64,000 nt of DNA from a virus (IMGVR_UViG_3300028534_000019:31091-95090); one strand, 5' to 3'. Positions 17,052 to 39,122 are shown, numbered from the stretch's first letter. The notes: generated by a model not told the origin, from the sequence alone. Numbers and translations: made by a program.

Positions 17052-17250
17052 TCTAAAAAGTGCTGATGAAATATATTTAGTAGTACAGTTTGGAGCAAAA
17101 GATTTTAACAATAGAACACAAGAATTGATTGATGAAAATTATATTCCATTTAGTGATGTTGCTGTTCAAAGTTTTCACGATGAATTTTGCTTTTCACAAC
17201 AGTTTATAAAAAATCCAAAATACATAGAAGAAACAAAAAGGAAAATATAA
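17041..17250 (+). CDS. hypothetical small protein
   Basis: 69-aa ORF bridging smpB and the next gene. Confidence 0.35.
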   Translation: MIDNLKSADEIYLVVQFGAKDFNNRTQELIDENYIPFSDVAVQSFHDEFCFSQQFIKNPKYIEETKRKI

Positions 17251-18041
17251 TGTTAATAGTACCTGTTGGTTTGCCTGGTTCAGGAAAAACTGTTTTATCA
17301 AGAAAATTTAATACAGTTATAAATGCTGATGAATTGTTTAAGGATAATTATACATTAGATGATTTAATAAATTATATAAAAGAATATAATTATACAGTAA
17401 CAGATGTTTATTTGGATGGTTTATTTATTACAAGGAATTTAGTTAAGAAATTGATTGAAACTTTTGATTATTATATTAGATTAGTATATTTTAAACCTAA
17501 TATAGAAAATTGTATCTACAATGATTTATCAAGAAATAGAGAAAAAGATAGTGTTAATATAATTTATGGTTCTGATTTAAGTTTTATGAAAGAAAGTTAT
17601 TTTAGAAATAAAATAAGAGAAACAATGGAAGTATATAAGGCTGATTATGTAGAATATATAAAAGAAGAAAATAACTTTCAAAATTATATAGAAACACAAG
17701 AGTATGTCTTAGAAGGAAGTACATATGGTACTTGTTGGGATGAAGACGGCCCGTCTGAAACAACACCTGATGACCCATACCATTTTACTGATTTTACAGA
17801 ACTTGAAAAGATATTTAAAAAAATGAATATTCCTTATACAGAAGAAAATTATAATAAAATTGAAAGTGTTATAGAAGAAGAAGATAGAAGTGAGGGTGAT
17901 TATTATGGTGGTTATGCTTATAAAGAGGTTTATAGAGTTGAAGTTACATTATTAATAAAAGCAATACTAAAAGAGTTTTTTGGTATTGATAAAACAGATA
18001 TGGCATATATTAAAAAAGAATACCCTGAACTAATATTTTAA
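17250..18041 (+). CDS. P-loop kinase (polynucleotide-kinase-like kinase domain) ending ...KKEYPELIF
   Basis: MLIVPVGLPGSGKT Walker A at the N-terminus, as in the T4 Pnk kinase domain (ILTIGCPGSGKST). The ORF track extends to 17187, but the ATG at 17250 gives the P-loop at the N-terminus. Confidence 0.5.
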   Translation: MLIVPVGLPGSGKTVLSRKFNTVINADELFKDNYTLDDLINYIKEYNYTVTDVYLDGLFITRNLVKKLIETFDYYIRLVYFKPNIENCIYNDLSRNREKDSVNIIYGSDLSFMKESYFRNKIRETMEVYKADYVEYIKEENNFQNYIETQEYVLEGSTYGTCWDEDGPSETTPDDPYHFTDFTELEKIFKKMNIPYTEENYNKIESVIEEEDRSEGDYYGGYAYKEVYRVEVTLLIKAILKEFFGIDKTDMAYIKKEYPELIF

Positions 18042-18056
18042 AAAAAAGGCTAAAAA

Positions 18057-18569
18057 ATGGTAGAAGAAAATAATTTTAGAGAAACAAAAACACATATTTA
18101 TTTTTGGGGTAGTATCTATTCTCAATGGTACACTTCAAAAAACCAATTCAAAGAAGATGGATTTATTTTTCAAAATGCTGAACAGTATATGATGATGAAA
18201 AAAGCAGAACTTTTTAAAGATTATGATGTATTAGAAAAAATGAAACAAACAAGTAATCCAAAGGTATTAAAAAAATTGGGTAGAGAAATTAAAGGTTTTG
18301 ATGAAGATATTTGGAATTTTAATAAAATGGATATTGTTGAAAGAGGGAATTTTTTAAAGTTCTCTCAAAATCCTAAGTTATTAGAAAAACTTATAGCACA
18401 CAAAAATAAACATATAGTAGAAGCATCACCTTATGATAAGATTTGGGGTATTGGGCTTCATTGGTCAGATGATAAGGTATTAAATGAAAGTACTTGGAAT
18501 GGTGAAAATCTTTTAGGTAAATGTATTATGTCAGCAAGAGATAAAATTTTAAATCCAAAATCTATATAA
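18057..18569 (+). CDS. NADAR-domain protein (YbiA-like, ADP-ribose/NAD-related N-glycosidase family)
   Basis: Collinear with E. coli YbiA: FWGSIYSQWY, NAEQYMMMKKAELF, FSQNPKLLEKL, VEASPYDKIWGIG (YbiA: VEHTENDAYWGDG). Confidence 0.8.
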   Translation: MVEENNFRETKTHIYFWGSIYSQWYTSKNQFKEDGFIFQNAEQYMMMKKAELFKDYDVLEKMKQTSNPKVLKKLGREIKGFDEDIWNFNKMDIVERGNFLKFSQNPKLLEKLIAHKNKHIVEASPYDKIWGIGLHWSDDKVLNESTWNGENLLGKCIMSARDKILNPKSI

Positions 18570-18639
18570 TAAGAAAAAATTAAATAAAAATATTATATAA
18601 TTAAGAATTAAAACATTTAAAACACAAAGGAGATAATTT

Positions 18640-20490
18640 ATGGCAGTTATTGGTATAGATTTAGGAACGACAAATAGTGCTGTTTCAGTTTATGAAGTAG
18701 GGGAATTTAAAATTATTCCTAATGCTGAGGGTAAAAATACAACACCTAGTATTGTAGCATTTACAGATAAAGGGGATGTATTAGTAGGGGAATCAGCAAA
18801 AAGACAAGCAGTCACAAACCCTGAAAAAACTATTGAAGCAATTAAAAGAATTATGGGTATGCAATTTAATGAACCTAGATGTAAAGAGGCTCAAGAAAAA
18901 GTACAATATAAAATTGTAGATAAAAATGGTTTGGCCGCTGTTGATGTTGATGGTAAGATTTATACACCACAAGAAATTTCAGCTAAAATCCTTACAAAAC
19001 TAAAAGATGATGCAGAAGCATTTATTGGTAAAGAAGTTACAGATGCTGTAATTACAGTTCCAGCATACTTTAATGATGCTCAGAGAAAGGCGACACAAGA
19101 GGCAGGCGTTATTGCAGGGCTTAATGTACTAAGAATTATTAATGAACCTACTTCGGCCGCTCTTGCTTATGGTTTGGACAAAAAAGGTGAGGAAAATATT
19201 CTTGTTTATGATTTTGGTGGTGGTACTTTTGATGTATCTGTATTAGAAATTGGAGATGGTACTTTTGAAGTTCTTTCAACTGATGGTAATGCTTTCTTAG
19301 GTGGTAAAGACTTTGACCAAATTTTAGTTAATTATATTGCTGAATATTTTAAAGAGAAACAGGGTGTTGATTTAAGAAATGATAAAATGGCACTTCAAAG
19401 ATTATATGATGCTTCAGAAAATGCTAAAAAAGAGTTATCAAGTGTTGTAGAAACTGAAATTAACTTACCATTTATTACTATGACAGAAGCCGGCCCGCAG
19501 CATCTTGTTTTAAAAATTTCAAGAGGTAAATTTGAGGGGTTAGTACAAAATCTTGTAGATGAAACTATTGAACATATTACAACAGCATTACAAGACGCTG
19601 GTTTAAGTGTAGATGATATTAGTGAATTGATTATGGTTGGTGGCTCAACAAGAATACCTTTAGTACAAGAGGCAGTTTCAAAGTATTTTAAAGGTAAAAC
19701 TCTTAATAAATCTGTTAATCCTGATGAAGTTGTAGCCGCTGGTGCTTCAATTCAAGGTGGTGTATTAACAGGAGATGTAAAAGATGTTCTTCTTCTTGAT
19801 GTTACACCATTATCACTTGGTATTGAAACTATGGGTGGTATTGCTACTAAAATCATCCCAAAAGGTACAACTATTCCTGTTAAAAAATCAGAAATCTTTA
19901 GTACAGCAGTTGATAATCAACCAGCAGTTAGTATTGTAGTAGTACAAGGTGAAGCAAAATTAGCAGAAGATAATAAATCTTTAGGACAATTTAATCTTGA
20001 GGGTATAACACCAGCTAAAAAAGGTGTACCACAAATTGAAGTTAATTTTGATGTTGATTCTAATGGTGTTTTGAGTGTATCAGCTATTGATAAAGGAACA
20101 GGTAAAGAACAGAAAATAACAATTACAGGTTCGACAGGTTTAAGTGAAGAAGAAATTAGAAAGATGATTGATGATGCTGAAAAACAAAATCAAGAAAAGG
20201 CTGAAAAAATTAAAGCAATTGAAGCAAAAAATGAATTGGATGCTACTCTTTCAAGAATTAAAAACTTTAATGATGAAGAAAAAAATGAAGTGCTATCAGC
20301 TAAAATTTCTGATGTTGAAGAATATGTAAAAGAAGATAGAACAGCAGAAGAAATTAGAAAAATTAGAGATGAACTTGAAGAAGTTTATTTAAAAGCATTT
20401 GAAGAGAAATCAAAAAGAAATGAAGGTGCTGAGGTAAAAGAAAGCACTGAAAATAATGATGATGTTATTGATGCTGAAATTGAAGAATAA
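18640..20490 (+). CDS. dnaK: Hsp70 chaperone DnaK homolog (full NBD + SBD + lid)
   Basis: [26 protein letters not shown] and the substrate-binding domain are all canonical. Confidence 0.95.
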
Positions 20491-20501
20491 AAGAGGAAAA
20501 A

Positions 20502-21305
20502 TTGAAAAAATTATATAAAATTCTTGAAATTGAAGAAACTTCTACAACAGTAGAAATAAAAAAAGCATATAGAAAATTAGCTAAAAAATACCACCCTGAT
20601 GTTTGTAAAGAAGAGGGTGGTGAAGATAAGTTTAAAGAAATTAATAGAGCATATGAAGTTCTAAGCAATCCACAAGAAAAACAAAAGTATGATAGATTTG
20701 GTGATGAAATGTATGAAAAAATGGGGTCAGGTGGTGGAAGACCTAATCCAAATGCTGATGAGTTTGCAGAAGCAATGGCATCATTTTTCAACCAAAAGGG
20801 AAATCCCCGACAAGGTAATCCTTTTGGTATGGGTGGTAATCCTTTTATTCATACAACAATTCAAGCATATATTTCGATAGAAGATTTATTTAAAGGTACT
20901 TCTATACAATTACAAGATGGTACTAAAGTAAAAATACCACCTAGAACAATACCGGGTAGTAGGGTAAGAGTTAAAGGCAAAGGTATGTCAGATGGTAAAA
21001 ATACAGGAGATTTATTTATTATCATAACACCAAAAAATAATGATAAAGAATTTGTTGAGAATGATACTATTATAAAGATTATCAAAATTGATTTAGTTAG
21101 TATGATTTTTGGAAATGAAATAAAATATAATCATTATGGTAAAGATTTAATTGTTACTGTTCCAAAAAATACAAAGCCCGGTGACTTTGTACAAATTCCC
21201 AATCAGGGCTTAGGTACTCAGGGTTCATTAATTTTACATTTAGATTTAGAATTACCAAAAGCAGAAGATTTAGATGAAGAAAAAGTAAAAGAATTATTTA
21301 ATTAA
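20502..21305 (+). CDS. DnaJ-like J-domain co-chaperone (type II, no Zn finger), TTG start
   Basis: J-domain YKILEI...AYRKLAKKYHPDV...YEVLSNPQEKQKYD. Gly-rich linker and a DnaJ C-terminal domain. AAGAGGAAAAA RBS before the TTG. Confidence 0.85.
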   Translation: MKKLYKILEIEETSTTVEIKKAYRKLAKKYHPDVCKEEGGEDKFKEINRAYEVLSNPQEKQKYDRFGDEMYEKMGSGGGRPNPNADEFAEAMASFFNQKGNPRQGNPFGMGGNPFIHTTIQAYISIEDLFKGTSIQLQDGTKVKIPPRTIPGSRVRVKGKGMSDGKNTGDLFIIITPKNNDKEFVENDTIIKIIKIDLVSMIFGNEIKYNHYGKDLIVTVPKNTKPGDFVQIPNQGLGTQGSLILHLDLELPKAEDLDEEKVKELFN

Positions 21306-21364
21306 TATACAATTAAGGTTTCTTTTGCTATAATTTCATCATATATAAACTAAAAGGATTCAAA

Positions 21365-21769
21365 ATGGCAAAAGAAAAAAGTTATGGGGTTGCTCCTTAT
21401 TTAATTATAAATGGGCAATATTATATATTGTTAAATAAAACATCAGAACATAGTAGATACAATTTCTTCAAAGGTAAAATTGAAGAGGGTGAAACTATTG
21501 CTCAATGTGCCAAAAGAGAATTTTGGGAAGAAACAGGTGTAGAAGTTGATGAGAGAGATTTTGAAGAATATTTTTTCCAAAAGTCTTCTAAAAAAGATGT
21601 TGGTATTTTTTTAATTAATTGGTCTAAATATATTAATAAAAAATTTCAATTTCAAAAAAGAGAAATTTGGGCTTCTTATTGGGTAGAGGTTGATGATGTT
21701 CAAACATCCAAAAACCAAAAAGAAATTGTTGATTCTATTGAATCTTTTTTTAAAAATAAATCTGAGTAA
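21365..21769 (+). CDS. Nudix hydrolase
   Basis: Nudix box GKIEEGETIAQCAKREFWEETGV (GX5EX7REUXEEXGU). Confidence 0.8.
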   Translation: MAKEKSYGVAPYLIINGQYYILLNKTSEHSRYNFFKGKIEEGETIAQCAKREFWEETGVEVDERDFEEYFFQKSSKKDVGIFLINWSKYINKKFQFQKREIWASYWVEVDDVQTSKNQKEIVDSIESFFKNKSE

Positions 21770-21785
21770 AAAGTAAAGGTAAAAA

Positions 21786-24447: not shown

Positions 24448-25548
24448 ATGTTAGTTCAAAATAAAAAAGTTCCAAAAGAAACATTAGAGTTATTGGACTC
24501 TAAAATAGAAGAATTTGAAAAAAATACAAATTCAACTGTTTTATATATTACAATTACAGGTTCTGTTCTTTATGGTACTGATAATGAAAATAGTGATTTA
24601 GATTTTAAAGGTATTTTTATGCCTAATCTAAAAGAAGTGCTTATTGGTAATACACCTAGTGCTTTTGTTTTTAATTCAAATACAAAAGATAAAAACTCTT
24701 CTGATGATATTGATTTAACATTACACCCTGTAAATGACTTCTTTAATCATCTTAGAAAATCTGAAACAGGTGCTGTTGATTTACTTTTTAGTATGTTTAG
24801 AGAAGATACTATTGTTTTTGATGATGGTATTTTCACGAACTTTATGAAGAAAAATTATCAAAAGTTTAGAAATTCTAATATGAAAAGTTTTATCGGTTAT
24901 GCTGTTGGTCAAACTAAAAAATTTGGGATTAAAGGTGCTAGATATGAAGAGTTAGATGTTTTTTATAAAGATTGTGTTAATTATTTTAATCTTGCTCCAA
25001 AAGAAAATAAATTAGGTGAATATTGGGATTTTCTTGAACTAAAAGCCCAAGGTAAAAAATATATTAAGTTTACAAAAGCAGAAGGTGCTAGAAGAAATGA
25101 TGGTAGTAGTAATATCATTGATTATATTTCTGTTCTTGGTAAACTATATCATAAAGATGTAACAGTAGGTTATTTTTTAGAAAGAGTTTCTAAATTTTAT
25201 AATCAATTTGGTAATAGAACTAAAACAGTAGCTAAAACTGAATCAAAAACAGATTGGAAAGCAATGAGCCACGCCCTTAGAGTAGCTATGGAAGTTAAAG
25301 AGTTACTTCAATTTGGTTTTATTAAATTTCCATTGACTTATGCTGATGAGATTAAAGAAGTTAAATTTGGTAACAGAGAAGAACAAGAAACATTAGATAA
25401 AATTAGAGATGTATTGGGTGAAGTTGATACAATATTAGAAAATATTGATAAAGATAACTTTCCTTGTGAAATGAGTGAAGAATTACTTAAAAAATTAAAA
25501 TGGGAAGTAATTCTTCTATATAAAGAGTTTTTAGATTTAGGTTTTTAA
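24448..25548 (+). CDS. nucleotidyltransferase-fold protein (Pol-beta / CD-NTase-like GS...D.D motif)
   Basis: ITGSVLYGTDNENSDLDFKGIF is the [GS]x9-13 Dh[DE]h signature. A third acidic DIDLT lies downstream. 366 aa. Confidence 0.55.
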   Translation: MLVQNKKVPKETLELLDSKIEEFEKNTNSTVLYITITGSVLYGTDNENSDLDFKGIFMPNLKEVLIGNTPSAFVFNSNTKDKNSSDDIDLTLHPVNDFFNHLRKSETGAVDLLFSMFREDTIVFDDGIFTNFMKKNYQKFRNSNMKSFIGYAVGQTKKFGIKGARYEELDVFYKDCVNYFNLAPKENKLGEYWDFLELKAQGKKYIKFTKAEGARRNDGSSNIIDYISVLGKLYHKDVTVGYFLERVSKFYNQFGNRTKTVAKTESKTDWKAMSHALRVAMEVKELLQFGFIKFPLTYADEIKEVKFGNREEQETLDKIRDVLGEVDTILENIDKDNFPCEMSEELLKKLKWEVILLYKEFLDLGF

Positions 25549-25549: not shown

Positions 25550-26602
25550 ATGGATTTTGATTTTGATGAAATTGTTGCTACAAGAACTTATGTTGATTGT
25601 TATTGTAATGATAATATAAGTTCAGATGATATTAAAGGTATATTAAATCCTAATTTTATTAATAAAACATTAAATGAAATAGATAATTTTTTATATGGTG
25701 GTTTTAATTATTTTAGTAAAAGAGTTCCATTCACTTTAGCTGGTGGTTCTCTTCTTAGTTATTGTTCTTATTATATAGCTACAAAAAATGATTATGGTAA
25801 TCCAAAAAGTTATTTAGATTGGTTGGAATATTCAGGTAATTCTGATATTGATTTATTTTTTGAATGTGAGGAAGATTATATAAAAATGCTTGAAGCAGTA
25901 CAAAAAAATGGTTTTAGTAATTTATCACCTAAACCAAATGCTAAAAGTTTTTATAAAAAAAGAGGAAAAAATAAAAATACAATTTCAATAGATTTAGTAC
26001 ATAAAGATTATTCAGCACCACAAAAACTTATAGATAGATTTGATTTGAATAAGAGTAAAATTGCTATAAGTTCTTATGGCAATCTTTATATAGGTAATGA
26101 TTTTGATAATTATCTTTGTTTAAATCCATTAAATATAAATTATAATACTATATCAAGATTTAAAAAATATTCTATAACAAAACATATACAACCTTCATAT
26201 AAAACTTTACAAGAACTTGTACATATTTTCATTGATAAACAAGATGAAGTATATGAAAGTTTTTATAATGATGAAAAAAGAGATATACCTATGTATGGTG
26301 GGCTTGAAAATCTGATTACAATTATTGTAGATTGTAAAAAGTTATATAACATAGATTTAAAACTTAGTCGTGATGAGGTATTTAACTTATATTTAATATT
26401 GGAGAAACATTTTTCTGAAAAAGATAGATTAATTTCTTTTTTTACAAAAATAATTAATGAAGATAGTATTGATTATATACCTAAAATATATGAATTATTA
26501 TTACAACGACAAGATAGATTTTATGGAAAACAATTTGAAGATAATATGGATGAATCTATTAGAGATAAAGTTTTAGAAACATACCCTGAAATAATGTTTT
26601 AA
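25550..26602 (+). CDS. second nucleotidyltransferase-fold protein, ending ...VLETYPEIMF
   Basis: LAGGSLLSYC...SGNSDIDLFFECEE NTase signature. 350 aa. Start 2 nt after the previous stop. Confidence 0.5.
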   Translation: MDFDFDEIVATRTYVDCYCNDNISSDDIKGILNPNFINKTLNEIDNFLYGGFNYFSKRVPFTLAGGSLLSYCSYYIATKNDYGNPKSYLDWLEYSGNSDIDLFFECEEDYIKMLEAVQKNGFSNLSPKPNAKSFYKKRGKNKNTISIDLVHKDYSAPQKLIDRFDLNKSKIAISSYGNLYIGNDFDNYLCLNPLNINYNTISRFKKYSITKHIQPSYKTLQELVHIFIDKQDEVYESFYNDEKRDIPMYGGLENLITIIVDCKKLYNIDLKLSRDEVFNLYLILEKHFSEKDRLISFFTKIINEDSIDYIPKIYELLLQRQDRFYGKQFEDNMDESIRDKVLETYPEIMF

Positions 26603-26664: not shown

Positions 26665-27576
26665 ATGGAAGAACAAATAGCGATTGATTTAGGCTATTCA
26701 ACATCAAAAGTTGCTTATGCTGATAAAATAGCAAAATTCCCAACTGCTGTTTCTTTTGCTACTGATGTAGGTACATCATATGGTGAAGGGAATATTTATG
26801 ACTTTGAGGGAGATAAGTATTATGTGGGTAGTGAAGCCGCTGATGCTGAGGCTTTTACAACTATGGATTTTAAATTTTTATATAAATTTGCTCCTCTTCT
26901 TATCTATCATATTTTAAGTAAATTTGATAAAGCAGAACTTGAAAAACCTATTGTTGTAAAAACAGGATTGGCAATTGTTGATTGGCATAAAAAAGATGAT
27001 TTTATTGAAAGAATTTCAAAAATTGAAGTGAATGGGCAAACTGTTGAAACAACACCCATTCTTATTCCTCAAGGTGCTGGATGTGCTGTTGATTGGGTTT
27101 CATCAGATAATGATGGAGAATGGCCGGACAATCTTACAGTAGTTGATATTGGTTATAATACTATTAACCTTATATCATTTTTAGAGGGTAAACCAATTAG
27201 AAAAAATATGAAAAGTTACCCAGGACACGGTGTTTCTAGTATAATTAAACCTTTTACTAGTTATCTTGAAAATACTTTTGGTACAACATTTTCAGAACAA
27301 GAAGCAATTAAATTTTTTGTTAAAGGTACTTTTAAATATAATGGTGAAGACCAACCTAAAGTATCAGAAAAAATTACAGAATTAAAATCACAATTTGTTA
27401 AAAAAATGTTTCAATCTGTTTTAGTTTCTGATAAAAAACTTCTTGCTATGTCAGATGTAGTGCTTATTGCTGGTGGTGGTGCTTATTTACTTCAAGATAT
27501 TCCATTCCCGCCAAATGTTGAGTTTGTTGATTCTCCTTATGAGTTCAGTAATACTCGTGGTTATTTAATTTCATAA
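26665..27576 (+). CDS. actin-like ATPase of the ParM/StbA/Alp family
   Basis: Phosphate-1 IAIDLGYSTSKVA, phosphate-2 VVDIGYNTINL, adenosine motif LIAGGGA. 303 aa. Confidence 0.75.
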   Translation: MEEQIAIDLGYSTSKVAYADKIAKFPTAVSFATDVGTSYGEGNIYDFEGDKYYVGSEAADAEAFTTMDFKFLYKFAPLLIYHILSKFDKAELEKPIVVKTGLAIVDWHKKDDFIERISKIEVNGQTVETTPILIPQGAGCAVDWVSSDNDGEWPDNLTVVDIGYNTINLISFLEGKPIRKNMKSYPGHGVSSIIKPFTSYLENTFGTTFSEQEAIKFFVKGTFKYNGEDQPKVSEKITELKSQFVKKMFQSVLVSDKKLLAMSDVVLIAGGGAYLLQDIPFPPNVEFVDSPYEFSNTRGYLIS

Positions 27577-28442: not shown

Positions 28443-28889
28443 ATGATTTTAGATAAAATCACAAAAGAACAATTATTAGCAAGAAAGAATAGAGATACCT
28501 TTAAAACAGGTATCTTAACTACATTAATGTCAGAAGTATCTATTATAGGTAAGAATAAAGGTAATAGAAAAACAACTGATGAAGAAGCAATTGCTGTTAT
28601 AAAGAAATTTATTTCAAATGCTGAAAATAACATTGAATCTCTTCAAGGTTCTCATAATTGGGAAAATTGTACTGAAAGTATTCAAGAATTTCAAGATGAA
28701 ATAGAATTACTTCAAGGTTTTTTACCAAAACAAATGACCGAAGATGAGTTAAAAGTATCTATTGAAGTTATGGTTTCAAAAGGTGCTAACAATATTGGTG
28801 CTATTATGGGTACTCTTAAAAAAGAATATGGTGGATTATATGATGGCAAGATGGCTAGTAAACTAGCTAAAGAAGTTTTATCAAAATAA
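28443..28889 (+). CDS. GatB/YqeY-domain protein
   Basis: 148 aa. The C-terminal KGANNIGAIMGTLKKEYGGLYDGKMASKLAKEVL matches the YqeY/GatB C-terminal helical domain pattern. Confidence 0.6.
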   Translation: MILDKITKEQLLARKNRDTFKTGILTTLMSEVSIIGKNKGNRKTTDEEAIAVIKKFISNAENNIESLQGSHNWENCTESIQEFQDEIELLQGFLPKQMTEDELKVSIEVMVSKGANNIGAIMGTLKKEYGGLYDGKMASKLAKEVLSK

Positions 28890-28940: not shown

Positions 28941-29846
28941 ATGACATTAGAAAAAGATGGTATATCTTACGAAAAACCGATAGTAACACTATTACAAGAT
29001 ACAGGTATAGGTGTAGCTGAATATGCCGCTAGAACTTGCTATGATAGTTTTAACAATAGTGAAAACACACTAATTAAAGAAGTTAATTACCAACTTGATT
29101 CTTATATAGGTCAAGACCATTATGATGAGTCATACAAAGATGATTTAAACAATATTGAAGATTCTGAATTGCTTAGTGATTTAGCTTGGGCATATCATCA
29201 CCATTCAATTTTAGAACATTCTAATCTATCTTTCTTAATTAAAGGTACTTCAAGAGGTGTACTTCAAGAACACGCTCGACATAGAATACAAGCAATTTCA
29301 GTAAGAAGTACAAGATATACAATGAGTGGTATTATTAATGCTTTTGTTGCTAGTAAATTTCATATTGGTTCAGAATTACAGTTTTTTACTGAAAAGTTAA
29401 TGAATATGGATATGTTTGTAACTACTGATGAAATGTATCAAAAAATTGAAATAGCAGGTATTTTTGATAAACTAAATTTTCAATATAATAACTGTAATGA
29501 ATTTTATGAGATGGCAGTTGCTAAATCTAGTATGAAATTTCTTGAAGCAAATGATAATCCTTATAATGCTTATGATATTTTTGAAAAACTTCAAAAAGGT
29601 AAGAAGAAAAGAAATGTTGGAGATGCTTTTAAACATATAGTTTCAGATAACTGGAAAGTAGATATGGTAGTGACTTTTAATATTAGAAGCCTTAAAAACT
29701 ACTTTACATTAAGAGATAGTGGTGCGGCATATTTTCAAATTAAGTGGTTAGCAGAAGAAATGAAAAAAGCAACACCTATTAAATACTTAAAACTTATTGA
29801 TAAAAAATATAGAGATGTTGATGTTAAAGGAATAGATAATGATTAG
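28941..29846 (+). CDS. thyX: flavin-dependent thymidylate synthase ThyX-like
   Basis: ThyX signature RHRIQAISVRSTRY (RHR...S.R). It could be a dNMP hydroxymethylase-type variant in a base-modifying phage. Confidence 0.75.
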   Translation: MTLEKDGISYEKPIVTLLQDTGIGVAEYAARTCYDSFNNSENTLIKEVNYQLDSYIGQDHYDESYKDDLNNIEDSELLSDLAWAYHHHSILEHSNLSFLIKGTSRGVLQEHARHRIQAISVRSTRYTMSGIINAFVASKFHIGSELQFFTEKLMNMDMFVTTDEMYQKIEIAGIFDKLNFQYNNCNEFYEMAVAKSSMKFLEANDNPYNAYDIFEKLQKGKKKRNVGDAFKHIVSDNWKVDMVVTFNIRSLKNYFTLRDSGAAYFQIKWLAEEMKKATPIKYLKLIDKKYRDVDVKGIDND

Positions 29847-30669: not shown

Positions 30670-30909
30670 ATGGAAATACAATCTTTATTATATAAATGTG
30701 ATAAATGTGATGCTATTATAGATAATCCAATTTCTAAAGAATATAATATTCATTTTTGTAACAAATGTGTTTTAGAGTTTATTCATAATAAGATGGTAAT
30801 TGAATTTAATGAACCTCAAAAAATTCATAACATAAATGAAAATCATAAAGATGAACATATAACGACAAAAAATATAGATTTTTGTGAAGTTAGTATTAAG
30901 GATTTATAA
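30670..30909 (+). CDS. small zinc-ribbon protein
   Basis: CDKCDA...FCNKC pairs of Cys. Confidence 0.4.
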   Translation: MEIQSLLYKCDKCDAIIDNPISKEYNIHFCNKCVLEFIHNKMVIEFNEPQKIHNINENHKDEHITTKNIDFCEVSIKDL

Positions 30910-31217
30910 TGTCAAAGCAATGGCTTAGTGAATTAATAGAACAGCCATATGAATGGTGTATTGAAACTGTTACAAAAGAGCCTGAATTACTAAAAAATAT
31001 AAAAGTACAAACACAAGAACTTTGTGAAATAGCATTTTATGAAGATTATAAAACAGCAAAATATATACATCAAGAATTTAGATTTAATGAGAGAATTTTA
31101 GCTATTGCTCGACAGCATAGTTTATTAAATAAAAGCATACCACAAGATATGCTTGAAAAAATAAATGAATATCCATATAATTACTTTGAAAAGAAATATC
31201 CTGAAATCTTTTTCTAA
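30909..31217 (+). CDS. hypothetical protein ending ...EKKYPEIFF
   Basis: 102-aa ORF. Member of the YPE-tail set. Confidence 0.45.
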   Translation: MSKQWLSELIEQPYEWCIETVTKEPELLKNIKVQTQELCEIAFYEDYKTAKYIHQEFRFNERILAIARQHSLLNKSIPQDMLEKINEYPYNYFEKKYPEIFF

Positions 31218-31567: not shown

Positions 31568-32455
31568 ATGGATAAAGGTTTATTTGGAATTATTGGAGCA
31601 GGTGTATTAGTAGTTATGCTATTAATTTTAGGTGCTACATCAGTTTATACAGTTGATGAGGGTAAAGTTGGTATTGTAAAGACTTGGGGTAAAGCAGTAA
31701 AGCAAGTTAATCCCGGACTTCACTTCAAAATGCCTATTGCTGATGAGGTTGTAGAGATTGAGGTAAGAACAAGAAAAAATGTTGAAACTATGAGTATTGC
31801 TACAAGTGAGCAAATGGCGGCAAAAGCAACTGTTTCTATGAACTGGACTGTTAATAAAGCAAGTGTTTTAGAACTCTATAAGAAATATGGCTCACTTGAC
31901 CAATTTGAAAGTAGAATTTTAGACCCAAAACTTAGAGATGCCACAAAAGAGGGTATTGCTAAATTTACAGCAGAACAAAATATTAAGAACAGAGGTGTAA
32001 GCACACTCAAAGTTAAGGAATTATTTATTAACCAAATTAAAGGTTATCCTATTACTGTTAATGGTTTTCAAATTGAAGATATTCAATTAAGTAAAAAATA
32101 TCTTGCTTCAATTGATGCTAAACAAACAGCTAAAAATGAAAGAGATGCTGAAAAATTTAAACTTGAAAAACAAGCCCTTGAAGCACAAAGAGCAGTAAAT
32201 ACAGCAAATGCTGAAAGAGATGCCGCTAAAGCAAGAGCAGATGGTGTGGCTTATAAAATTGAAGCAGAAGCAAAAGCAAATGCTAAGAAAATTGCCCTTA
32301 TTGCTGGAGCAGAAGCAAAAGCAATTAAACAAAAAGCACAAGCACTTAAAAATAACCCTGCTATTATAGACTATATGAGAGCAGAAAAATGGAGTGGGAA
32401 TTATCCTACTACTATGATGGGTAGCAACCCAAACATTCTTATGAAATTAAAATAA
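31568..32455 (+). CDS. SPFH / Band 7 (stomatin-prohibitin-HflK family) membrane protein
   Basis: N-terminal TM helix, then YTVDEGKVGIVKTWGK...PGLHF (SPFH core). C-terminal Ala/Lys-rich coiled coil. Confidence 0.8.
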   Translation: MDKGLFGIIGAGVLVVMLLILGATSVYTVDEGKVGIVKTWGKAVKQVNPGLHFKMPIADEVVEIEVRTRKNVETMSIATSEQMAAKATVSMNWTVNKASVLELYKKYGSLDQFESRILDPKLRDATKEGIAKFTAEQNIKNRGVSTLKVKELFINQIKGYPITVNGFQIEDIQLSKKYLASIDAKQTAKNERDAEKFKLEKQALEAQRAVNTANAERDAAKARADGVAYKIEAEAKANAKKIALIAGAEAKAIKQKAQALKNNPAIIDYMRAEKWSGNYPTTMMGSNPNILMKLK

Positions 32456-32602: not shown

Positions 32603-32914
32603 ATGGAAGAGTTTTTAAATAAGTTTGAAAAAATAGTTGATAGTTTCCCTTTAAACCCATCATACTTTTTAGTATTGGATATAGCAAATGATGTTTCAAA
32701 TGCTATGTTAGAAGATGATAAAGAAGTTTGTAGAAATATGTTATTAAAATATATTAAAATTGAATGTAGCATAGAAACATATAATGAAAACAGAAAAGAA
32801 ATTGATAAATTAATTTCAAAAATTAAAGAAACATTGATTACACTTTGTTTAACATTTTCAAGAGATGATAGTTTTATAATGGTTGATGATAATTTAATAG
32901 ATTTAGAATTATGA
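32603..32914 (+). CDS. hypothetical protein
   Basis: 103-aa ORF driven by the repeated GCTATAAT cassette. Confidence 0.45.
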   Translation: MEEFLNKFEKIVDSFPLNPSYFLVLDIANDVSNAMLEDDKEVCRNMLLKYIKIECSIETYNENRKEIDKLISKIKETLITLCLTFSRDDSFIMVDDNLIDLEL

Positions 32915-33183
32915 TTGAAAATTATTTTGATTGGTTTTTAAATAATTCTGAAGAATTAAGTGATTTTAGGAATGATTTTTTATATACGATAATAACTATT
33001 GAAACAGCACCAAAAATGGAACTTAGTTTATTCTATGTTTTTAAAGATTTAGGTATTAATCTTGATATATCTGATATTAGTGTTAAGGTTAATAGTACAA
33101 GTTCTAGTTTAAGTGTTTCAGATAATTTAAAAGAAAAACTAAAACTCTATATAAAAGAAAAATATCCTGAAATTATATTCTAA
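32911..33183 (+). CDS. hypothetical protein ending ...KEKYPEIIF
   Basis: 90-aa ORF. Member of the YPE-tail set. Confidence 0.45.
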   Translation: MIENYFDWFLNNSEELSDFRNDFLYTIITIETAPKMELSLFYVFKDLGINLDISDISVKVNSTSSSLSVSDNLKEKLKLYIKEKYPEIIF

Positions 33184-33461: not shown

Positions 33462-33464
33462 AGA

Positions 33465-34577
33465 ATGAAAATTACAGAGATTAAACCTATTTTACAGTTT
33501 TCTAAAGATGCTGATGATGCTGTAATCATTGAGGGTAAACACGGTATTGGTAAATCAGAAATAGTTAAACAATATTGTTCGGAAAATGGTTATTTTTATA
33601 CTGTTTTATTTTTAAGTCATCAAGAAGTTGGTGATTTGATTGGTATGCCTTTTGAAAAAAATGGTATTCAATATTGGTCTAAACCATCTTGGTTAGTAAG
33701 AATGGAAGAAGCATCAGCAAGAGGGGAACATAATGTTTTACTCTTAGATGAGTTAAACCGAGCCCAAACTGATGTATTACAAAGTGCTTTACAACTTGTT
33801 TTAGAAAGACAAATTCACGAGCATTTCTTACCTACTACTGATGGTGTAAGAAGTCAAGTAATTGCTTGTATTAACCCTGATGATGATTTATATCAAGTAA
33901 TTACACTTGACCCAGCACTAAAAGATAGATTTTTACATTTAAAAACAAGTGAAGATTTACAAGGATGGGTTAAATGGGGTGGTGAAAAAGGAGTACCTGA
34001 TGTTGTTATTCATTACTTGCTTGAAAATGAAAATGATTTTCATAGTACAAATGAAGATGGTGAGGGTGCTACACCAAGAAGTTGGTATAAATTAAGTCAA
34101 TTCTTGAAAATATTTGAAGATAAAGAAGTTGAAGAATTTCAACTTTGGGAGATTATTAAAGGTAAAGTAGGTTCAAGTATCGGTAGCAAATTCCTTAACT
34201 TTTATAATACTCATAGTACATTTATTGATGTTACAAAAATTAAAAAGTTTTTAAATAAATATAAAAGAGATATTTCTGATTTACCTGAAATTGGTGCTGA
34301 ATTAGCTAGTTATATTAAAGGTCTTGAACAAGTAACTAAAGTAGAACAAGTTAATAAACTATATCACGACAGTATTGAAAAAATTAAAGATACTAAAGTT
34401 ACTATGGATGATGAAGATATTTTCACTATTTTTGCTATGCTTCACGCTTTTGAAATAGAAGTAACAACATCAGTTATGAAGCAATGGAAAAATGAAAGTG
34501 TGAGTGATTTTATGGATTTTGTTAAAAAAGATAATAAAGAACTCATTACATTAATAACAAGAAGATTAAAAACATAA
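33465..34577 (+). CDS. MoxR/CobS-like AAA+ ATPase (AAA_5)
   Basis: Walker A GKHGIGKSE, Walker B/sensor LLLDELNRA. 370 aa. Confidence 0.75.
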   Translation: MKITEIKPILQFSKDADDAVIIEGKHGIGKSEIVKQYCSENGYFYTVLFLSHQEVGDLIGMPFEKNGIQYWSKPSWLVRMEEASARGEHNVLLLDELNRAQTDVLQSALQLVLERQIHEHFLPTTDGVRSQVIACINPDDDLYQVITLDPALKDRFLHLKTSEDLQGWVKWGGEKGVPDVVIHYLLENENDFHSTNEDGEGATPRSWYKLSQFLKIFEDKEVEEFQLWEIIKGKVGSSIGSKFLNFYNTHSTFIDVTKIKKFLNKYKRDISDLPEIGAELASYIKGLEQVTKVEQVNKLYHDSIEKIKDTKVTMDDEDIFTIFAMLHAFEIEVTTSVMKQWKNESVSDFMDFVKKDNKELITLITRRLKT

Positions 34578-34592
34578 AAGAGGTATTAAAAA

Positions 34593-34802
34593 ATGTATGC
34601 TTTAATAGGTTATAATGATGAGTATTATTACATTCAAATTTTTTCAGAAACTGATGTTGTGTATGGTTATATAATATATAACTTTAGTGGGGATAAAAGT
34701 TTAGTAGTTGATAATTTCCCAATTAGTTCAGTATTAAAAAGGTTTGAAACATTATATACTATTGAAGAAATACAAAATTTATACCCTGAATTAAAGTTCT
34801 AA
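34593..34802 (+). CDS. small protein ending ...NLYPELKF
   Basis: 69-aa ORF between the AAA+ and VWA genes. Member of the YPE-tail set. Confidence 0.45.
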   Translation: MYALIGYNDEYYYIQIFSETDVVYGYIIYNFSGDKSLVVDNFPISSVLKRFETLYTIEEIQNLYPELKF

Positions 34803-34814
34803 GAAAGGTTTTAT

Positions 34815-35183
34815 ATGGTAAAATTTCATAAAGATTATGATTTTAAAGGTGCTGATTTAGAAATCTTAAAAAAATTTCATAAAGATAATAATATTTCAAG
34901 AGTTGTATTAGATATAGAACTTAAAAAAGATAAAATTATGTTTTATTGGATTGAATATTCTAATTTTAGATATTTGTATGTTGATGATTTAAAAAGAAGT
35001 AGAGATATTAATATTAGCATATTCAAAATTAATGATATTATTTCTATAACAAATAGAGATTTTAACACACAAATATATTTTAAAGATGATATGTTTTATA
35101 TACCAAATAATAAAAATACTGATGTATTAATTGATGAATTTATCGAAGGTGATACATCAGTGAAAATTTTAAGAAAGATTTAA
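34815..35183 (+). CDS. hypothetical protein
   Basis: 122-aa ORF. Confidence 0.4.
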   Translation: MVKFHKDYDFKGADLEILKKFHKDNNISRVVLDIELKKDKIMFYWIEYSNFRYLYVDDLKRSRDINISIFKINDIISITNRDFNTQIYFKDDMFYIPNNKNTDVLIDEFIEGDTSVKILRKI

Positions 35184-35219
35184 TATTTTTTAGTGTATAA
35201 TGTCATATAAAGGATTAAA

Positions 35220-36473
35220 ATGGCTAAGAGTAATTTAAGAAGTGAAATTATTGAGGAAACTGTTATAAATGCCTTTTCAAATAAGAGAGATGGTTTTGTA
35301 AATGAGTATGCTTTTTATTTTCATATGTTTGCTATGTGTAATATAATTGAAACAGAAGATGTAGAGTTAGCAGGTGTTAATTTTATTAAAAAATGGAATT
35401 TATATATAAATCCTAAAGAGTTTCAAAAATATTCACTTAATCAAAGACTTGGTATAATTAAGCACGAAATGCTTCACATAATTTTTAACCATTTAGTAAG
35501 AATGGAAAACAAAGAAAAAGAAGAATGGAATTTAGCTACTGATTGTGCTATTAATCAAATGATTAGAAGTGCTGATTTACCTAAAGAAAGAGTAGATACA
35601 AAAAGTCTAAGTGAATATTTGGGTGTTGATGTACCTACTAATCAAAGTGCTGATTATTATTATGATTTAATTATGAAAAATAAAAAACAACAAAATAAAT
35701 GTGGTGGCAGTTCATCAGGTGGTTGTCCACAACAAGGTGATGGTAGTGGTTCTGATGAAAGTGATGGTTTAGGTACATTAGATGACCATAATAAATGGGA
35801 AGAGTCGGAAAGTATGGATGGTATAGAAGAACTTATTGAATCTTCTGTTAAAGATATGGTTTCAAAAGCCCAAGACAAAAACAGAGGTCTAACACCACAA
35901 GAACTTAATGAAATTATTGAGATTATTTTTGGTAAATCTGTTGTTAATTGGAAAAGTGTTTTAAGAAATATTGTTTCTAATAGAAGAGTTAATAAAAGAT
36001 ATACAATTCAAAAAAGGAATAGAAGATTCCCAAAAAGAATAGAAATTAGAGGTACAACAAAAGAGAAAAAATTTGATATTGTTGTTATACTTGATATTTC
36101 AGGTAGTATGAATGATAGTGAAATTCAAGATGGTTTAAATGAAATTAAAGCAATTGCTAAATTAACAAAATCTAGTATTAAGATAATTCAAGTCGATACA
36201 ACTGTTAAAGAAGTTCAAGAGTTTACAGCAAAGACAAAAACATTTAATAGACTTGGTTGTGGTGGTACAATGATGTATCCAGCACTTCAATATATAAAAG
36301 ATAACAAAATAGATATGGATTGTGGCATTTTGATTTCAGATATGATGATTGAAAGTTTAGATACTTGGGAACAAAAAGGTTTAGCACCAAAATGTAAATT
36401 TATCTTTTTGAATACTAGTAACCACTCACTAAAAACAACAACAAGAAAAAACTATATGTTTTTTGATTTATAA
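35220..36473 (+). CDS. VWA-domain protein with N-terminal HExxH metallopeptidase-like domain (CobT/DUF2201-like partner of MoxR ATPase)
   Basis: KHEMLHIIFNH (HExxH). Gly/Ser-rich linker. VWA MIDAS VVILDISGSMND...GGT. Confidence 0.7.
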   Translation: MAKSNLRSEIIEETVINAFSNKRDGFVNEYAFYFHMFAMCNIIETEDVELAGVNFIKKWNLYINPKEFQKYSLNQRLGIIKHEMLHIIFNHLVRMENKEKEEWNLATDCAINQMIRSADLPKERVDTKSLSEYLGVDVPTNQSADYYYDLIMKNKKQQNKCGGSSSGGCPQQGDGSGSDESDGLGTLDDHNKWEESESMDGIEELIESSVKDMVSKAQDKNRGLTPQELNEIIEIIFGKSVVNWKSVLRNIVSNRRVNKRYTIQKRNRRFPKRIEIRGTTKEKKFDIVVILDISGSMNDSEIQDGLNEIKAIAKLTKSSIKIIQVDTTVKEVQEFTAKTKTFNRLGCGGTMMYPALQYIKDNKIDMDCGILISDMMIESLDTWEQKGLAPKCKFIFLNTSNHSLKTTTRKNYMFFDL

Positions 36474-36485
36474 AAAGGAAATAAA

Positions 36486-36833
36486 ATGGAATATTTATAT
36501 ATAATTTTAATTGGTTATGCTTTTAATTTTGCTGTTGAAATTATTTGGACAATACTTACAATTATTGTAACCACTGGTTCTATAATACAAGACCCAAAGA
36601 GTATGTTAGAACTTAAAAAATTAGAATCTTTAACAGCTAGATATAAATTGTTAAATAAAGATATACCCTTTAGTAAAAAAAGCACTGAGAAAATAGCTTC
36701 GGCTTTTCCTTTTGCTTCAATAGTTGGTATGATTCTATTAACATATAAAATTAAACAAAATAATGGTTTAGTTGGTTATATTGAGAGTGAAAATAAAAGA
36801 TTTGAAGAAATAATAAAAGAGCAAAAAGGTTAA
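36486..36833 (+). CDS. small membrane protein
   Basis: 115 aa with two hydrophobic segments. Confidence 0.45.
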   Translation: MEYLYIILIGYAFNFAVEIIWTILTIIVTTGSIIQDPKSMLELKKLESLTARYKLLNKDIPFSKKSTEKIASAFPFASIVGMILLTYKIKQNNGLVGYIESENKRFEEIIKEQKG

Positions 36834-36901
36834 ATTTTTTAAGTTTCATTTAAGTCTAATATGTTATAATTTTACATATCAAAAGACAAAAAGGATTTAA
36901 A

Positions 36902-37321
36902 ATGATTTTAATCATAGATACATTATTTACAGAAAGTGTTGCTTTAACAGTTATTCAAGAAAAAGAGAATGAAAAAAGAGTTAAAGAAGTTAATTATAAA
37001 GATGTTAAAAAAGAAATTGAAAATAACACTTTTAATATTTGTAATTTAAAAGATGATGTTATAAGATTTATTAAAATAAATGATGTTCCTGCTGATGTTT
37101 TTGAAAGTTTTAAAGAGTATTTAAGAGGTTGTTTATTTGAATTAACAGTTAAAAACCTTAAAAAAGGTTTTGAAGATACTTTGAAAATACAAGAAGTTAC
37201 TAAATCAATTAATGATTTAGATATTAAAATTTCTATTGCTGATAATGTTTTTGAATTAGGACAATTATCAATAGCATTAGATTATTATAAAAATGAATTA
37301 GATAAAATAAAAGGGTTATAA
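36902..37321 (+). CDS. hypothetical protein
   Basis: 139-aa ORF behind the second copy of the 66-nt promoter cassette. Confidence 0.45.
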   Translation: MILIIDTLFTESVALTVIQEKENEKRVKEVNYKDVKKEIENNTFNICNLKDDVIRFIKINDVPADVFESFKEYLRGCLFELTVKNLKKGFEDTLKIQEVTKSINDLDIKISIADNVFELGQLSIALDYYKNELDKIKGL

Positions 37322-38004
37322 TGGATAATATATTATTAAGAGATTTAGTTAATGAGATTGATGAAAATACTAAGGTTATTTCAGATACTCATTTTTCTCA
37401 TAAAAATATCCTAAATTTTGAGCCTTGTAGATTAACACAAATGAGAATTGATGGTTATGATGCAGATGAACACGACAAATGGCTCATAGATAAATGGAAT
37501 GAGAATGTAGGTAAAGATGAACTTGTTATACATTTAGGTGATTTTGCTTTTAAAAGAGTAGCTGAATGTTTAGAAGAATTAAATGGTAGAATTATTTTAA
37601 TTCTTGGAAACCACGATGGAAATTCAAAAAATACAAAATATAATAAGGCTACTGTTGTAGATGGTTCTTATATGTTTCTAAAGTCTTATACAGATGATAC
37701 AATATTATGTAAAATTGTTGATGAAGATGAGAAAAATAGTTCTTTGATAATTGAAATTGGTGGTAAGACTGTTATGTTTTGTCATTATGCTTTATTTAAT
37801 AAAAATGGTGAATGGGATTATAAAAATCCAAAGATAGCACCAAGAATTAAATATCTTGAGAGTATTTATTCTATGTTAGATTGTGATGTAAATGTACACG
37901 GTCATCTACATAGTTCTATTAGTACTTTTGATAAAAGTATAAACTGTTCTCTTGAACATATTGAGTTTAAACCAACAAAAATAAAAGATTTAAAAGGGTG
38001 GTAA
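37321..38004 (+). CDS. calcineurin-like metallophosphoesterase
   Basis: MPP motifs ISDTHFSH, HLGDF, ILGNHDG, GHLH. Confidence 0.75.
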   Translation: MDNILLRDLVNEIDENTKVISDTHFSHKNILNFEPCRLTQMRIDGYDADEHDKWLIDKWNENVGKDELVIHLGDFAFKRVAECLEELNGRIILILGNHDGNSKNTKYNKATVVDGSYMFLKSYTDDTILCKIVDEDEKNSSLIIEIGGKTVMFCHYALFNKNGEWDYKNPKIAPRIKYLESIYSMLDCDVNVHGHLHSSISTFDKSINCSLEHIEFKPTKIKDLKGW

Positions 38005-38172
38005 ATGGTAGTAAATGATTTAAGAGTTATGCTAAGTACAGCATTAGAAATTATTGGTGATAGAAATGCTTTACCATCAGATAAAGATAAAATTATTCTA
38101 TTGATGAAGAGTGAAGCAACAACACATAATCTTGAAGAAATAGAAAAGATTTGTGAAAAATATAAAGGATAG
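38005..38172 (+). CDS. possible small ORF (~55 aa) not in the ORF track
   Basis: ATG at 38005 overlapping the previous stop. Open to a TAG at about 38170. Fills the gap before the CCA-enzyme gene. Confidence 0.3.
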   Translation: MVVNDLRVMLSTALEIIGDRNALPSDKDKIILLMKSEATTHNLEEIEKICEKYKG

Positions 38173-38174
38173 TA

Positions 38175-39122
38175 ATGTTTGTTGTTAGAAAATTGCTTGA
38201 AGAAGCAAATGATAATTATTTTAAAAGACTTAATGATAATGAAATATCTAAAAATGATATAGAAATTTATGAAACTATTTTCCCTATTAGAAAATTAGAT
38301 GCTAGAAAATTAGATGATTTTGTTTCTAAAACTAACATTGATAATCTATTAATTAAAATTTCAAAACTAGATAATTCTTATATTAAAACTTTACTTAATG
38401 ATGTAATACTGATATTATCTAATGAAAAACCAAACTCAAGTCTAGCAGAAAATCTAAATCTTGTAAAAATGAGAATTGAAATAGATTTAGATGATGATGT
38501 TAAAAATTTTATATATGCTGAGGATATTATAGAAGTTTTAAAAACATTACCTAAAAGAACATTTATTGTAGGTGGTTTTGTTAGAGATTCAATAGCTAAT
38601 AGAAGTGCTAATGATATGGATTTTTGTACTGAAAATAGCTATGAAGATGTAAAAAAAGTTTTTGAAAAAAATAAAAACTTCTCTATTAAAGAAACAGGTA
38701 AACATTTTTCTGTTTTGATTGTTACAGATAAAAATAATCTTGAATCTTTTGAAATTGCTCAATTAAGAAAAGACAAAGATAATGGTGGTGCTGAAATAGG
38801 AACTATTATAGATGATGCTGAAAGAAGAGATTTTATGAATAGTGCTATTTACTTTGATATTAATTCTAAAGTATTAATTGACCCTCACGGTCAATCAATA
38901 GATGATAGTGTCAGAAATGTAATTAGATTTATTGGCAAACCTGAGGATAGAATAAAAGAAGACCCTCTAAGGGTTCTAAGATTTTATAGATTTATGGGTA
39001 GAGGTTGGGTAGCTGATTCAAAATCATTAAAAGCAGTGAGAACTAATTTTAGTTTAATGATGAATGAAACATCTCATAATAGAGTTATGAGTGAAATTGA
39101 AAAAATGGTAATGGGAGCATAA
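38175..39122 (+). CDS. cca: tRNA nucleotidyltransferase (CCA-adding enzyme, class II head domain)
   Basis: FIVGGFVRDSI (GGxVRD), NDMDFC (DxD), DAERRDFMNSAIYFD (RRD motif), EDPLRVLRFYRF (EDxxR). Confidence 0.8.
   Translation: MFVVRKLLEEANDNYFKRLNDNEISKNDIEIYETIFPIRKLDARKLDDFVSKTNIDNLLIKISKLDNSYIKTLLNDVILILSNEKPNSSLAENLNLVKMRIEIDLDDDVKNFIYAEDIIEVLKTLPKRTFIVGGFVRDSIANRSANDMDFCTENSYEDVKKVFEKNKNFSIKETGKHFSVLIVTDKNNLESFEIAQLRKDKDNGGAEIGTIIDDAERRDFMNSAIYFDINSKVLIDPHGQSIDDSVRNVIRFIGKPEDRIKEDPLRVLRFYRFMGRGWVADSKSLKAVRTNFSLMMNETSHNRVMSEIEKMVMGA

Follow-up and report, generated by a model that had tools for sequence, protein, structure and literature searches.

Candidate RNA-end-processing and translation-rescue genes dispersed in a distant T4-like phage

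We examined a 64,000-nucleotide (nt) stretch of viral DNA (IMGVR_UViG_3300028534_000019:31091-95090, hereafter the window) that encodes a P-loop kinase, a calcineurin-like metallophosphoesterase, a short CCA-type nucleotidyltransferase, SmpB and a transfer-messenger RNA (tmRNA). Our leading reading, held with moderate confidence, is that a distant T4-like phage carries RNA-end-processing and translation-rescue genes that are dispersed and do not form one repair operon. An earlier note on this DNA had proposed that the kinase, the phosphoesterase and a CCA-adding enzyme supply three of the steps by which T4 heals cleaved transfer RNAs (tRNAs). The RNA-repair or translation-maintenance flavour of that proposal is plausible and partly supported by association: an RlaP-family enzyme, the cassette contexts of homologues and the kinase profile speak for it, whereas the scattering of the genes and the lack of a visible ligase speak against it. 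The set is not a T4-type Pnkp/Rnl1 system. The theme of phage RNA repair is already known (PMC7824862; PMC9503650), and the new elements are an unannotated two-domain kinase family and a body-less, loop-shortened clade of CCA-type enzymes.

The sequence shows which domains are present, that their catalytic motifs are intact, how the families are distributed and which genes surround them; from this we infer substrates, activities and a possible cooperation between the genes. The kinase, resembling polynucleotide kinase (PNK), would phosphorylate 5'-OH nucleic-acid ends, the metallophosphoesterase of family PHROG 547 would take off 2',3'-cyclic or 3' phosphates, the RlaP enzyme would replace one or two lost 3' nucleotides, and the short CCA-type enzyme would restore part of the tRNA or tmRNA 3' end. 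SmpB and tmRNA would free stalled ribosomes. The combined set would counter host ribotoxins that cut tRNAs, and sealing would require a ligase from elsewhere in the genome or from the host. Phages are known to answer host ribotoxins with RNA repair; in the version suggested by the window its parts are unlinked and partly replaced, the kinase bearing a widespread domain that resembles no solved fold and the CCA-type enzyme having lost its tRNA anchor. If the proteins do act on RNA ends, the repertoire of healing enzymes is wider than known and testable candidates are named here; if they do not, the window warns against reading a pathway into repair-like domains that merely occur together in a large phage.

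A kinase family close to polynucleotide 5'-kinases

The open reading frames (ORFs) of the kinase, the phosphoesterase and the nucleotidyltransferase start exactly at 17250, 37321 and 38175, all on the + strand, as the earlier note had placed them. The kinase is a protein of 263 amino acids (aa) with two domains, an N-terminal P-loop kinase domain (17250..17660, + strand) of the polynucleotide-kinase/PSTK/Kti12 clade and a C-terminal domain of ~125 aa (17661..18041, + strand) that carries the motifs W..GG(T)YG.CW(D) and E.DYYGG. As a single sequence it had no match in PHROG or NCBIfam. A word-indexed search returned ten kinase proteins, the window's own and nine relatives, while an exhaustive profile search recovered 523 clusters of the family at E<=1e-10, nearly all of them 250-300 aa long and two-domain. 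More than 500 sequence clusters of this family are currently without annotation. The Walker A motif GLPGSGKT, the catalytic-type D27, D56-G57 and the lid residues D92/R95/R97 are invariant or near-invariant.

When we compared a 64-member profile of the family with solved structures, it matched LcoKIN (9drz, 1.8e-7) and RazKIN (9d8a, 6.5e-7), both RNA 5'-OH kinases of Mucorales, as well as Pnkp1 of the bacterial Pnkp/Rnl/Hen1 complex (4xrp, 6.6e-7) and T4 Pnk (1ly1, 1.6e-5). GLPGSGKT and D27 align with the P-loop and Asp of LcoKIN, Pnkp1 and T4 Pnk, and the window kinase has all the features that mark a T4-type Pnkp kinase domain, namely the Walker A motif, lid arginines and, following strand 2, an Asp in the general-base position. 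Its placement nearest to the polynucleotide 5'-kinases is supported by both sequence profile and fold. The description of this protein as a Pnk-like kinase therefore holds for the profile, but it does not extend to the architecture of T4 Pnkp, since no HAD-type 3'-phosphatase domain (DxDxT) is present at the C terminus.

The C-terminal domain was modelled alone with confidence, and the model had no significant solved structural relative, the C-terminal domains of PSTK and Kti12 included; identities as a phosphatase, 2H enzyme or ligase were rejected on the same ground, and it is not a calcineurin domain either. The two domains also exist as separate proteins, and in the close kinase subfamily the C-terminal domain ends in a PE-h-h-h tail (YPELIF in the window). 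Only gp242 of Bacillus phage G matches among 50,697 cultured-phage records, the motif of the close subfamily was found in none of 185,579 species genomes, and IMG/VR yielded only four loci.

The metallophosphoesterase and its cassette relatives

The assignment of the second gene (37321..38004, + strand) to the calcineurin-like phosphoesterases was confirmed. Its 227-aa product matches Metallophos_2 (7.8e-10) and Metallophos (7.3e-6), both with scores that exceed the Pfam cut-offs, and PHROG 547 (1.5e-40), a family present in 990 phage records; the best solved relative is Aquifex aq_1665 (7e-8). The metal-site motifs are complete (D22-x-H24, G73-D74, G96-N97-H98-D99, H155 and G194-H195-x-H197). 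The earlier note had named an Mre11-like nuclease as one of two identities that would undo the RNA-repair idea. We rejected an Mre11/SbcD nuclease, as the protein has 227 aa, marginal matches to PHROG 284 (9e-4) and SbcD_rel (0.006), and no Rad50-like neighbour.

In three separate phage lineages, the genes beside homologues of this phosphoesterase encode an AAA_33 kinase of 135 aa and a ligase of the Rnl1 type, a neighbourhood already predicted to serve RNA repair by Iyer et al. (PMC9503650). In Vibrio phage pv27, whose terminase places it with the closest cultured relatives, the phosphoesterase is accompanied by the ligase, the kinase and a full-length, HD-containing CCA enzyme, all within 6.3 kilobases (kb) (locus L028), with the CCA enzyme 4.3 kb past the cluster of the other three. 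In the T5-like Vibrio phage Gary the cassette is gp176-177-178, and in Escherichia phage ECP2303 (Vequintavirus) it has a Sir2 gene alongside. By BLASTP the window phosphoesterase matches the three copies at 7.5e-21 (pv27), 2.6e-17 (Gary) and 6.7e-15 (ECP2303), in each case over the N-terminal half only. As a side observation on the pv27 locus, the gene at L028 127-651 carries the annotation 'RNA ligase' but encodes a 2H phosphodiesterase of the Acb1 anti-CBASS type (Pfam 5e-38); the true Rnl1-type ligase lies at L028 10929-11825.

A short class II nucleotidyltransferase

The third gene (38175..39122, + strand) encodes a short class II nucleotidyltransferase of 315 aa, recognised by its PolyA_pol head (7.5e-18) and by CCA-adding enzymes in the PDB (3e-18). 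Behind an N-terminal extension of ~115 aa come the head and the neck, which carry the four motifs A, B, D and E. Residues ~105-315 align to positions ~8-245 of 400-aa CCA-adding enzymes and poly(A) polymerases, and the residues invariant with the canonical enzymes are G133-G134, R137, D147, D149, R217-R218-D219, E262-D263, R266, R269, R303 and E307. The closest relatives, proteins P0012-P0029 of 206-355 aa that large phage contigs encode, stop at the same point, so the architecture of the short form is conserved and did not arise from faulty assembly.

The flexible loop between BxA (RKD) and DxxRRD counts ~13 aa (KDNGGAEIGTIID) against ~19 aa in the nearest relatives; it is 6-7 residues shorter than in the sister sequences and lacks DGRRP, and so does not have the form of an A-addition loop. 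Deleting or mutating this loop is known to restrict class II enzymes to CC addition (PMC2910056). As far as the sequence allows a judgement, the CCA-adding identity of the enzyme is unproven, because the tRNA-binding body and tail are absent and the A-addition loop is shortened. The earlier name of CCA-adding enzyme is matched by the head and neck motifs only. Its proposed role as a T4 step against anticodon nucleases also falls away, because CCA addition is a 3'-end repair and lies outside anticodon-loop repair.

The phosphoesterase and CCA-like genes adjoin, and the tmRNA gene comes next. A conserved linkage between CCA-like and tmRNA genes was not seen, as the other short CCA-like genes have no tRNA or tmRNA nearby; one of them sits 2.4 kb from Thg1.

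RlaP and the trans-translation pair

An RlaP-family (PF10127) Pol-beta nucleotidyltransferase is encoded at 24448..25548 (+ strand; Pfam 6.4e-13, 49.4 bits against a cut-off of 23), with a PHROG 388 match of 5e-57 over residues 20-350. It was overlooked in the earlier note, as were the NADAR gene beside the kinase and the Nudix, Sir2, DUF488-N3a and YqeY genes described below. RlaP occurs in 1511 phage records, mostly T4-like, and 949 of these cover at least 80% of the protein. T4 NrdC.11 belongs to the family, whose characterised members add one or two nucleoside monophosphates to damaged RNA 3' ends (PMC12776372). No RNA ligase associated with RlaP was found in the window or its flanks. Directly after RlaP lies a 350-aa ORF (25550..26602, + strand) that has a weak PHROG 4400 match and ends in YPEIMF. 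A GGS...DxD pattern seen by eye hinted at a possible further nucleotidyltransferase; Pfam, NCBIfam and PDB gave no match, and the assignment was set aside.

The tmRNA and SmpB reported in the earlier note are both present. SmpB, the tmRNA partner, is encoded full length at 16602..17051 (+ strand; Pfam SmpB 1.7e-38) and directly precedes the kinase region, and the tmRNA gene (39452..39772, + strand) was found by ARAGORN and matches the full Rfam model RF00023 with 90.8 bits. The tag read by ARAGORN is ANNTDYTGNTVLSA, which ends in LSA and not in the common LAA. All three parts expected of trans-translation, namely the tRNA-like domain, the tag ORF and SmpB, thus lie in the window. The 3'-terminal CCA of the tmRNA is DNA-encoded (...CATCTCC-A-CCA), and the gene is located 330 nt downstream of the CCA-like gene.

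Weighing dispersed RNA-end processing against other explanations

Several observations weigh against a joint role of these genes in RNA-end processing. First, no Rnl1, Rnl2, RtcB or KxDG ligase was found in the window and ~16 kb of flanks, a total of ~80 kb of a 100.9-kb source contig whose genome is probably much larger. The search for such ligases that the earlier note had called for therefore came back empty over this range, and its statement that the window holds no KxDG ligase motif was borne out. Between 274 and 44579 the Pfam scan took in every ORF that reached 90 aa, terminase and protease ORFs excepted, and found no ligase; a KxDG motif scan of the window gave no ligase candidate, and tblastn with pv27 proteins gave no RNA ligase. 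Six-frame translations of the window and of the loci L005, L007 and L031, searched with a profile built from the three cassette ligases, gave nothing better than E 0.016 (9 bits), and Pfam found no ligase in a further 4.8 kb of upstream DNA (JGI contig). The profile of the cassette kinase matched only the 17250 ORF, weakly (E 0.004), and Hen1 was not detected in the window.

Second, the repair-like genes are dispersed: the phosphoesterase and the CCA-like gene form the sole neighbour pair, the kinase lies 19 kb from both, and the other short CCA-like genes have no metallophosphoesterase nearby, so that the pairing itself is not conserved. Third, the CCA-like enzyme lacks the body, the tail and PF12627, where canonical enzymes run ~170 aa further, and the tmRNA needs no CCA addition to mature because its CCA is encoded, which rules out a need for this enzyme in tmRNA maturation. 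Fourth, the copy of the phosphoesterase in Bacillus phage Phrodo is matched over its full length (E 4.5e-26), whereas the cassette copies are matched only in the N-terminal half, and the Phrodo gene overlaps an SbcD-like exonuclease gene in a replication/recombination module with SbcCD-like nucleases adjacent. Finally, the neighbourhoods of the kinase homologues are heterogeneous (topoisomerase II, DnaB, GmrSD, PARP).

Another explanation, which we consider unlikely though it is the strongest competitor, is that the genes are functionally unrelated accessories of a large phage. The kinase and NADAR would then take part in ADP-ribose-linked or DNA-end chemistry, for example against DarT-type DNA ADP-ribosylation or in 5'-end processing; the phosphoesterase would serve DNA replication/recombination or the degradation of nucleotide signals; and the nucleotidyltransferases would only maintain tRNA and tmRNA ends. 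In its favour, NADAR starts 16 nt past the kinase stop, and a PARP-domain gene begins 10 nt downstream of the kinase homologue in locus L017. In Bacillus phage G an ADP-ribosylglycohydrolase and a NAD-dependent DNA ligase lie within 6 kb of the homologue, and in locus L020 the homologue follows gp46/47-like genes. The position of the Phrodo phosphoesterase, between a helicase-like gene and the SbcCD-like exonucleases, and the presence of Sir2, Nudix and DUF488 genes in the window point the same way, and T4-like phages are reported to use orphan antitoxin-like enzymes against DarTG1 (PMC11825919).

Evidence on the other side comes from the RNA-ligase cassettes around phosphoesterase homologues and from RlaP, PTH2, Tpt1 and 2H genes near the kinase homologues, which point to RNA ends. 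In phage G a 2H/LigT phosphoesterase lies two genes upstream of the kinase homologue; in L020 Tpt1 follows 5.7 kb downstream and a tRNA_bind protein is encoded at a distance of 0.9 kb; in L023 RlaP and PTH2 are 2.5-3.7 kb upstream; and in L024 a PHROG-547-type phosphoesterase is 1.3 kb downstream. An RNA-end or ADP-ribose gene lies within 6.5 kb in ~7 of the 11 kinase contexts, a raw count, uncorrected for background, to be read in the light of large phages being rich in such genes. Loci L004 and L016 have MoxR or VWA-metallopeptidase genes beside the homologue, and L002, L018 and L025 contain no informative genes around it. The Metallophos genes near homologues in L002, L012 and L020 belong to unrelated metallophosphoesterase families, only the L024 copy being PHROG-547-like. 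One branch of RNA repair has itself been linked to NAD/ADP-ribose enzymes (PMC9503650), and the repair and accessory-gene readings therefore overlap.

We regard a broader proposal as doubtful. A large, unannotated phage family with a polynucleotide-kinase domain and a new fold (CW/DYYGG) would act on nucleic-acid ends with NAD+/ADP-ribose enzymes, next to a class of body-less nucleotidyltransferases and a C-terminal tail that serves as a hub peptide. The kinase family could then partner its NADAR, PARP, Tpt1 or 2H neighbours, for example by making or processing 5'-phosphate ends that are (de-)ADP-ribosylated. The short, loop-deleted CCA-type enzymes would be a new class of body-less nucleotidyltransferases for 3'-end repair with altered specificity, and the kinase and the five other ORFs that end in YPE-h-h-F would be bound to one hub through this tail, acting as a degron or as a docking peptide.

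A still less probable explanation makes the kinase an enzyme of nucleotide metabolism that acts on nucleotides or other small molecules. As a single sequence it gives only weak matches, below the Pfam cut-offs, to AAA_33 and AAA_18, and some of its BFVD matches bear the annotation guanylate or thymidylate kinase. However, the best profile matches are polynucleotide kinases, a separate dNMP-kinase-like gene (dNMP, deoxynucleoside monophosphate) is present at 8795-9316 (PHROG 2107), and the conserved extra domain and the neighbourhoods are unlike those of nucleotide-metabolism kinases.

Least likely is a PSTK/Kti12-type kinase directed to tRNA or tmRNA by a C-terminal RNA-binding domain, which would serve translation quality control by acting on a nucleotide or aminoacyl group and not on broken ends. 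The tRNA-dependent kinases PSTK and Kti12 share its clade and resemble it in length and in having two domains, profile positions 3-219 match residues 5-254 of PSTK (3a4l) across both domains (E 0.002), and the gene run of SmpB, kinase, NADAR, DnaK and DnaJ would suit such a role, but this sequence similarity is marginal and polynucleotide kinases score better, the C-terminal domain has no detectable structural similarity to those of PSTK and Kti12, and SmpB was not seen next to kinase homologues in the loci examined beyond the window.

Comparison with known repair systems

Set beside dispersed RNA-end processing, the T4 Pnkp+Rnl1 system, which acts against the PrrC anticodon nuclease, has in common with the window a T4-like phage, a P-loop kinase of the same clade and an RlaP/NrdC.11 nucleotidyltransferase. 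It differs in that the window kinase carries an unrelated C-terminal domain in place of the HAD 3'-phosphatase, that a calcineurin-type protein encoded on its own, 19 kb off, is the candidate for the phosphatase role, and that no Rnl1 or Rnl2 occurs in the ~80 kb. In the Pnkp/Hen1 system of Clostridium thermocellum a kinase, a calcineurin-type phosphoesterase and a ligase belong together, whereas the window parts are separate, unlinked genes with no ligase or Hen1 found, and its phosphoesterase is closest to aq_1665 and the small YfcE/MJ0936 phosphodiesterases and not to the CthPnkp phosphatase.

The rV5-type cassette (PMC9503650), which Sir2 often accompanies, shares with the window a homologous phosphoesterase (E 1e-15 to 1e-21, N-terminal half) and a related sirtuin. 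Unlike the cassette copies, the window phosphoesterase has no adjacent ligase or small (~135 aa) kinase, its C-terminal half is of the Herelleviridae/aq_1665 type, and the window kinase is a member of another family, one with two domains. The Mucorales enzymes RazKIN and LcoKIN are eukaryotic, single-domain proteins of ~170 aa that are GTP-specific through a G-loop, with ~18% identity to the window kinase. Finally, the class II CCA-, CC- and A-adding enzymes and poly(A) polymerase have motifs A (GGxVRD...DxD), B (RRD), D (EDxxRxxR) and E in common with the window nucleotidyltransferase, which differs by ending after the neck, by its unique N-terminal extension and by the missing DGR, a lack shared with CC-adding enzymes.

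The window and its other genes

The 64-kb window has a G+C content of 24-30% (26% for the phage) and is tightly packed, with nearly all genes on the + strand. It includes the T4-type genes gp32, RNase H, large terminase and gp25/gp6-like baseplate, and Gp23-type capsid genes lie immediately upstream. The terminase reaches only ~40% identity with the cultured phages that match it best (phiKT1024 and pv27 of Vibrio, and Campylobacter phages), and blastn of the window gave DnaK-level matches only, which rules out a known phage. Because of this low terminase identity and the DNA search finding only DnaK, the window is, judged by its sequence, part of a distant, uncultured T4-like myophage. In IMG/VR the CCA-like query found no locus and the phosphoesterase query a single distant one.

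Around the kinase the gene order is SmpB, a 69-aa ORF (17041-17250) that overlaps the SmpB 3' end and runs into the kinase start, the kinase, NADAR, DnaK, DnaJ and Nudix. The NADAR-domain protein (18057..18569, + strand) matches Pfam NADAR (3.8e-45), TIGR02464 (2.4e-41) and PHROG 1017. It is followed by the Hsp70-like DnaK (18640-20490, + strand), DnaJ (20502-21305, + strand) and a Nudix hydrolase (21365..21769, + strand; Pfam NUDIX 3.6e-14), whose NCBIfam matches are weak and mixed (MutT, NAD diphosphatase, RNA pyrophosphohydrolase). Two Hsp70/DnaK-like proteins (616 and 620 aa) and one DnaJ are encoded in all, the second Hsp70 gene (39844-41706) following the tmRNA. A phage-type sirtuin (4884..5633, + strand; Pfam SIR2 1.4e-27) is 36% identical (BLASTP 3e-38) to the Sir2 of ECP2303 that stands beside the ligase-kinase-phosphoesterase cassette, and a DUF488-N3a gene (5621-6088) overlaps the end of the sirtuin gene.

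A MoxR-type AAA_5 ATPase (33465-34577) is encoded near a DUF2201 VWA-plus-metallopeptidase protein (35220-36473), and both families adjoin kinase homologues in L004 and L016. Other accessory genes encode an actin-like protein (26665-27576; ALP/ParM-type, with an MreB-like C-terminal part), the GatB-like YqeY (28443-28889), ThyX (28941-29846), an SPFH/Band-7 protein (31568-32455) and dCMP deaminase (43498-43989). The only sizeable minus-strand block (44791-47935) comprises five ORFs with inverted GC skew, including paralogous ORFs of 170-174 aa (46290-46814 and 46887-47399) that have the look of structural proteins.

A shared C-terminal tail

The sequence YPE-h-h-F directly before the stop ends 6 of the 91 window ORFs, compared with 0.008 expected from composition. 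The bearers are unrelated: the kinase (17250-18041), the ORF after RlaP (25550-26602) and four small ORFs (6954-7157, 8181-8423, 30909-31217 and 32911-33183). Such tails also occur in loci of relatives (L002, L004, L016, L024, L025 and L028): those that hold kinase homologues have 5-11 ORFs each ending in PE(Y/L)(F/Y)(L/V/I), the last residue being lineage-specific. About half of the tails in L002, L024 and L025 lie where a GGAG-spacer-ATGA sequence joins the following gene, a position suggestive of translational coupling or of recombination. The window tails have CCT GAA codons, a TAA stop and no overlapping start, so they may have a role at the protein level; the idea that the tail is a pure by-product of a ribosome-binding site and an overlapping ATGA fails for the window copies and for the kinase homologues. 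As a peptide the tail may serve in docking or as a degron; alternatively, it may be a mobile sequence of gene junctions. A full-text literature search for 'PEYFL' returned no phage paper.

Two further window proteins have C-terminal ends that are distinct from the YPE-h-h-F tail, namely RNase H (2370-3512, ...SLDDFLEW) and gp32 (1345-2358, ...DDLSFLEDL). These ends resemble the acidic or hydrophobic partner-binding tails of T4-type proteins.

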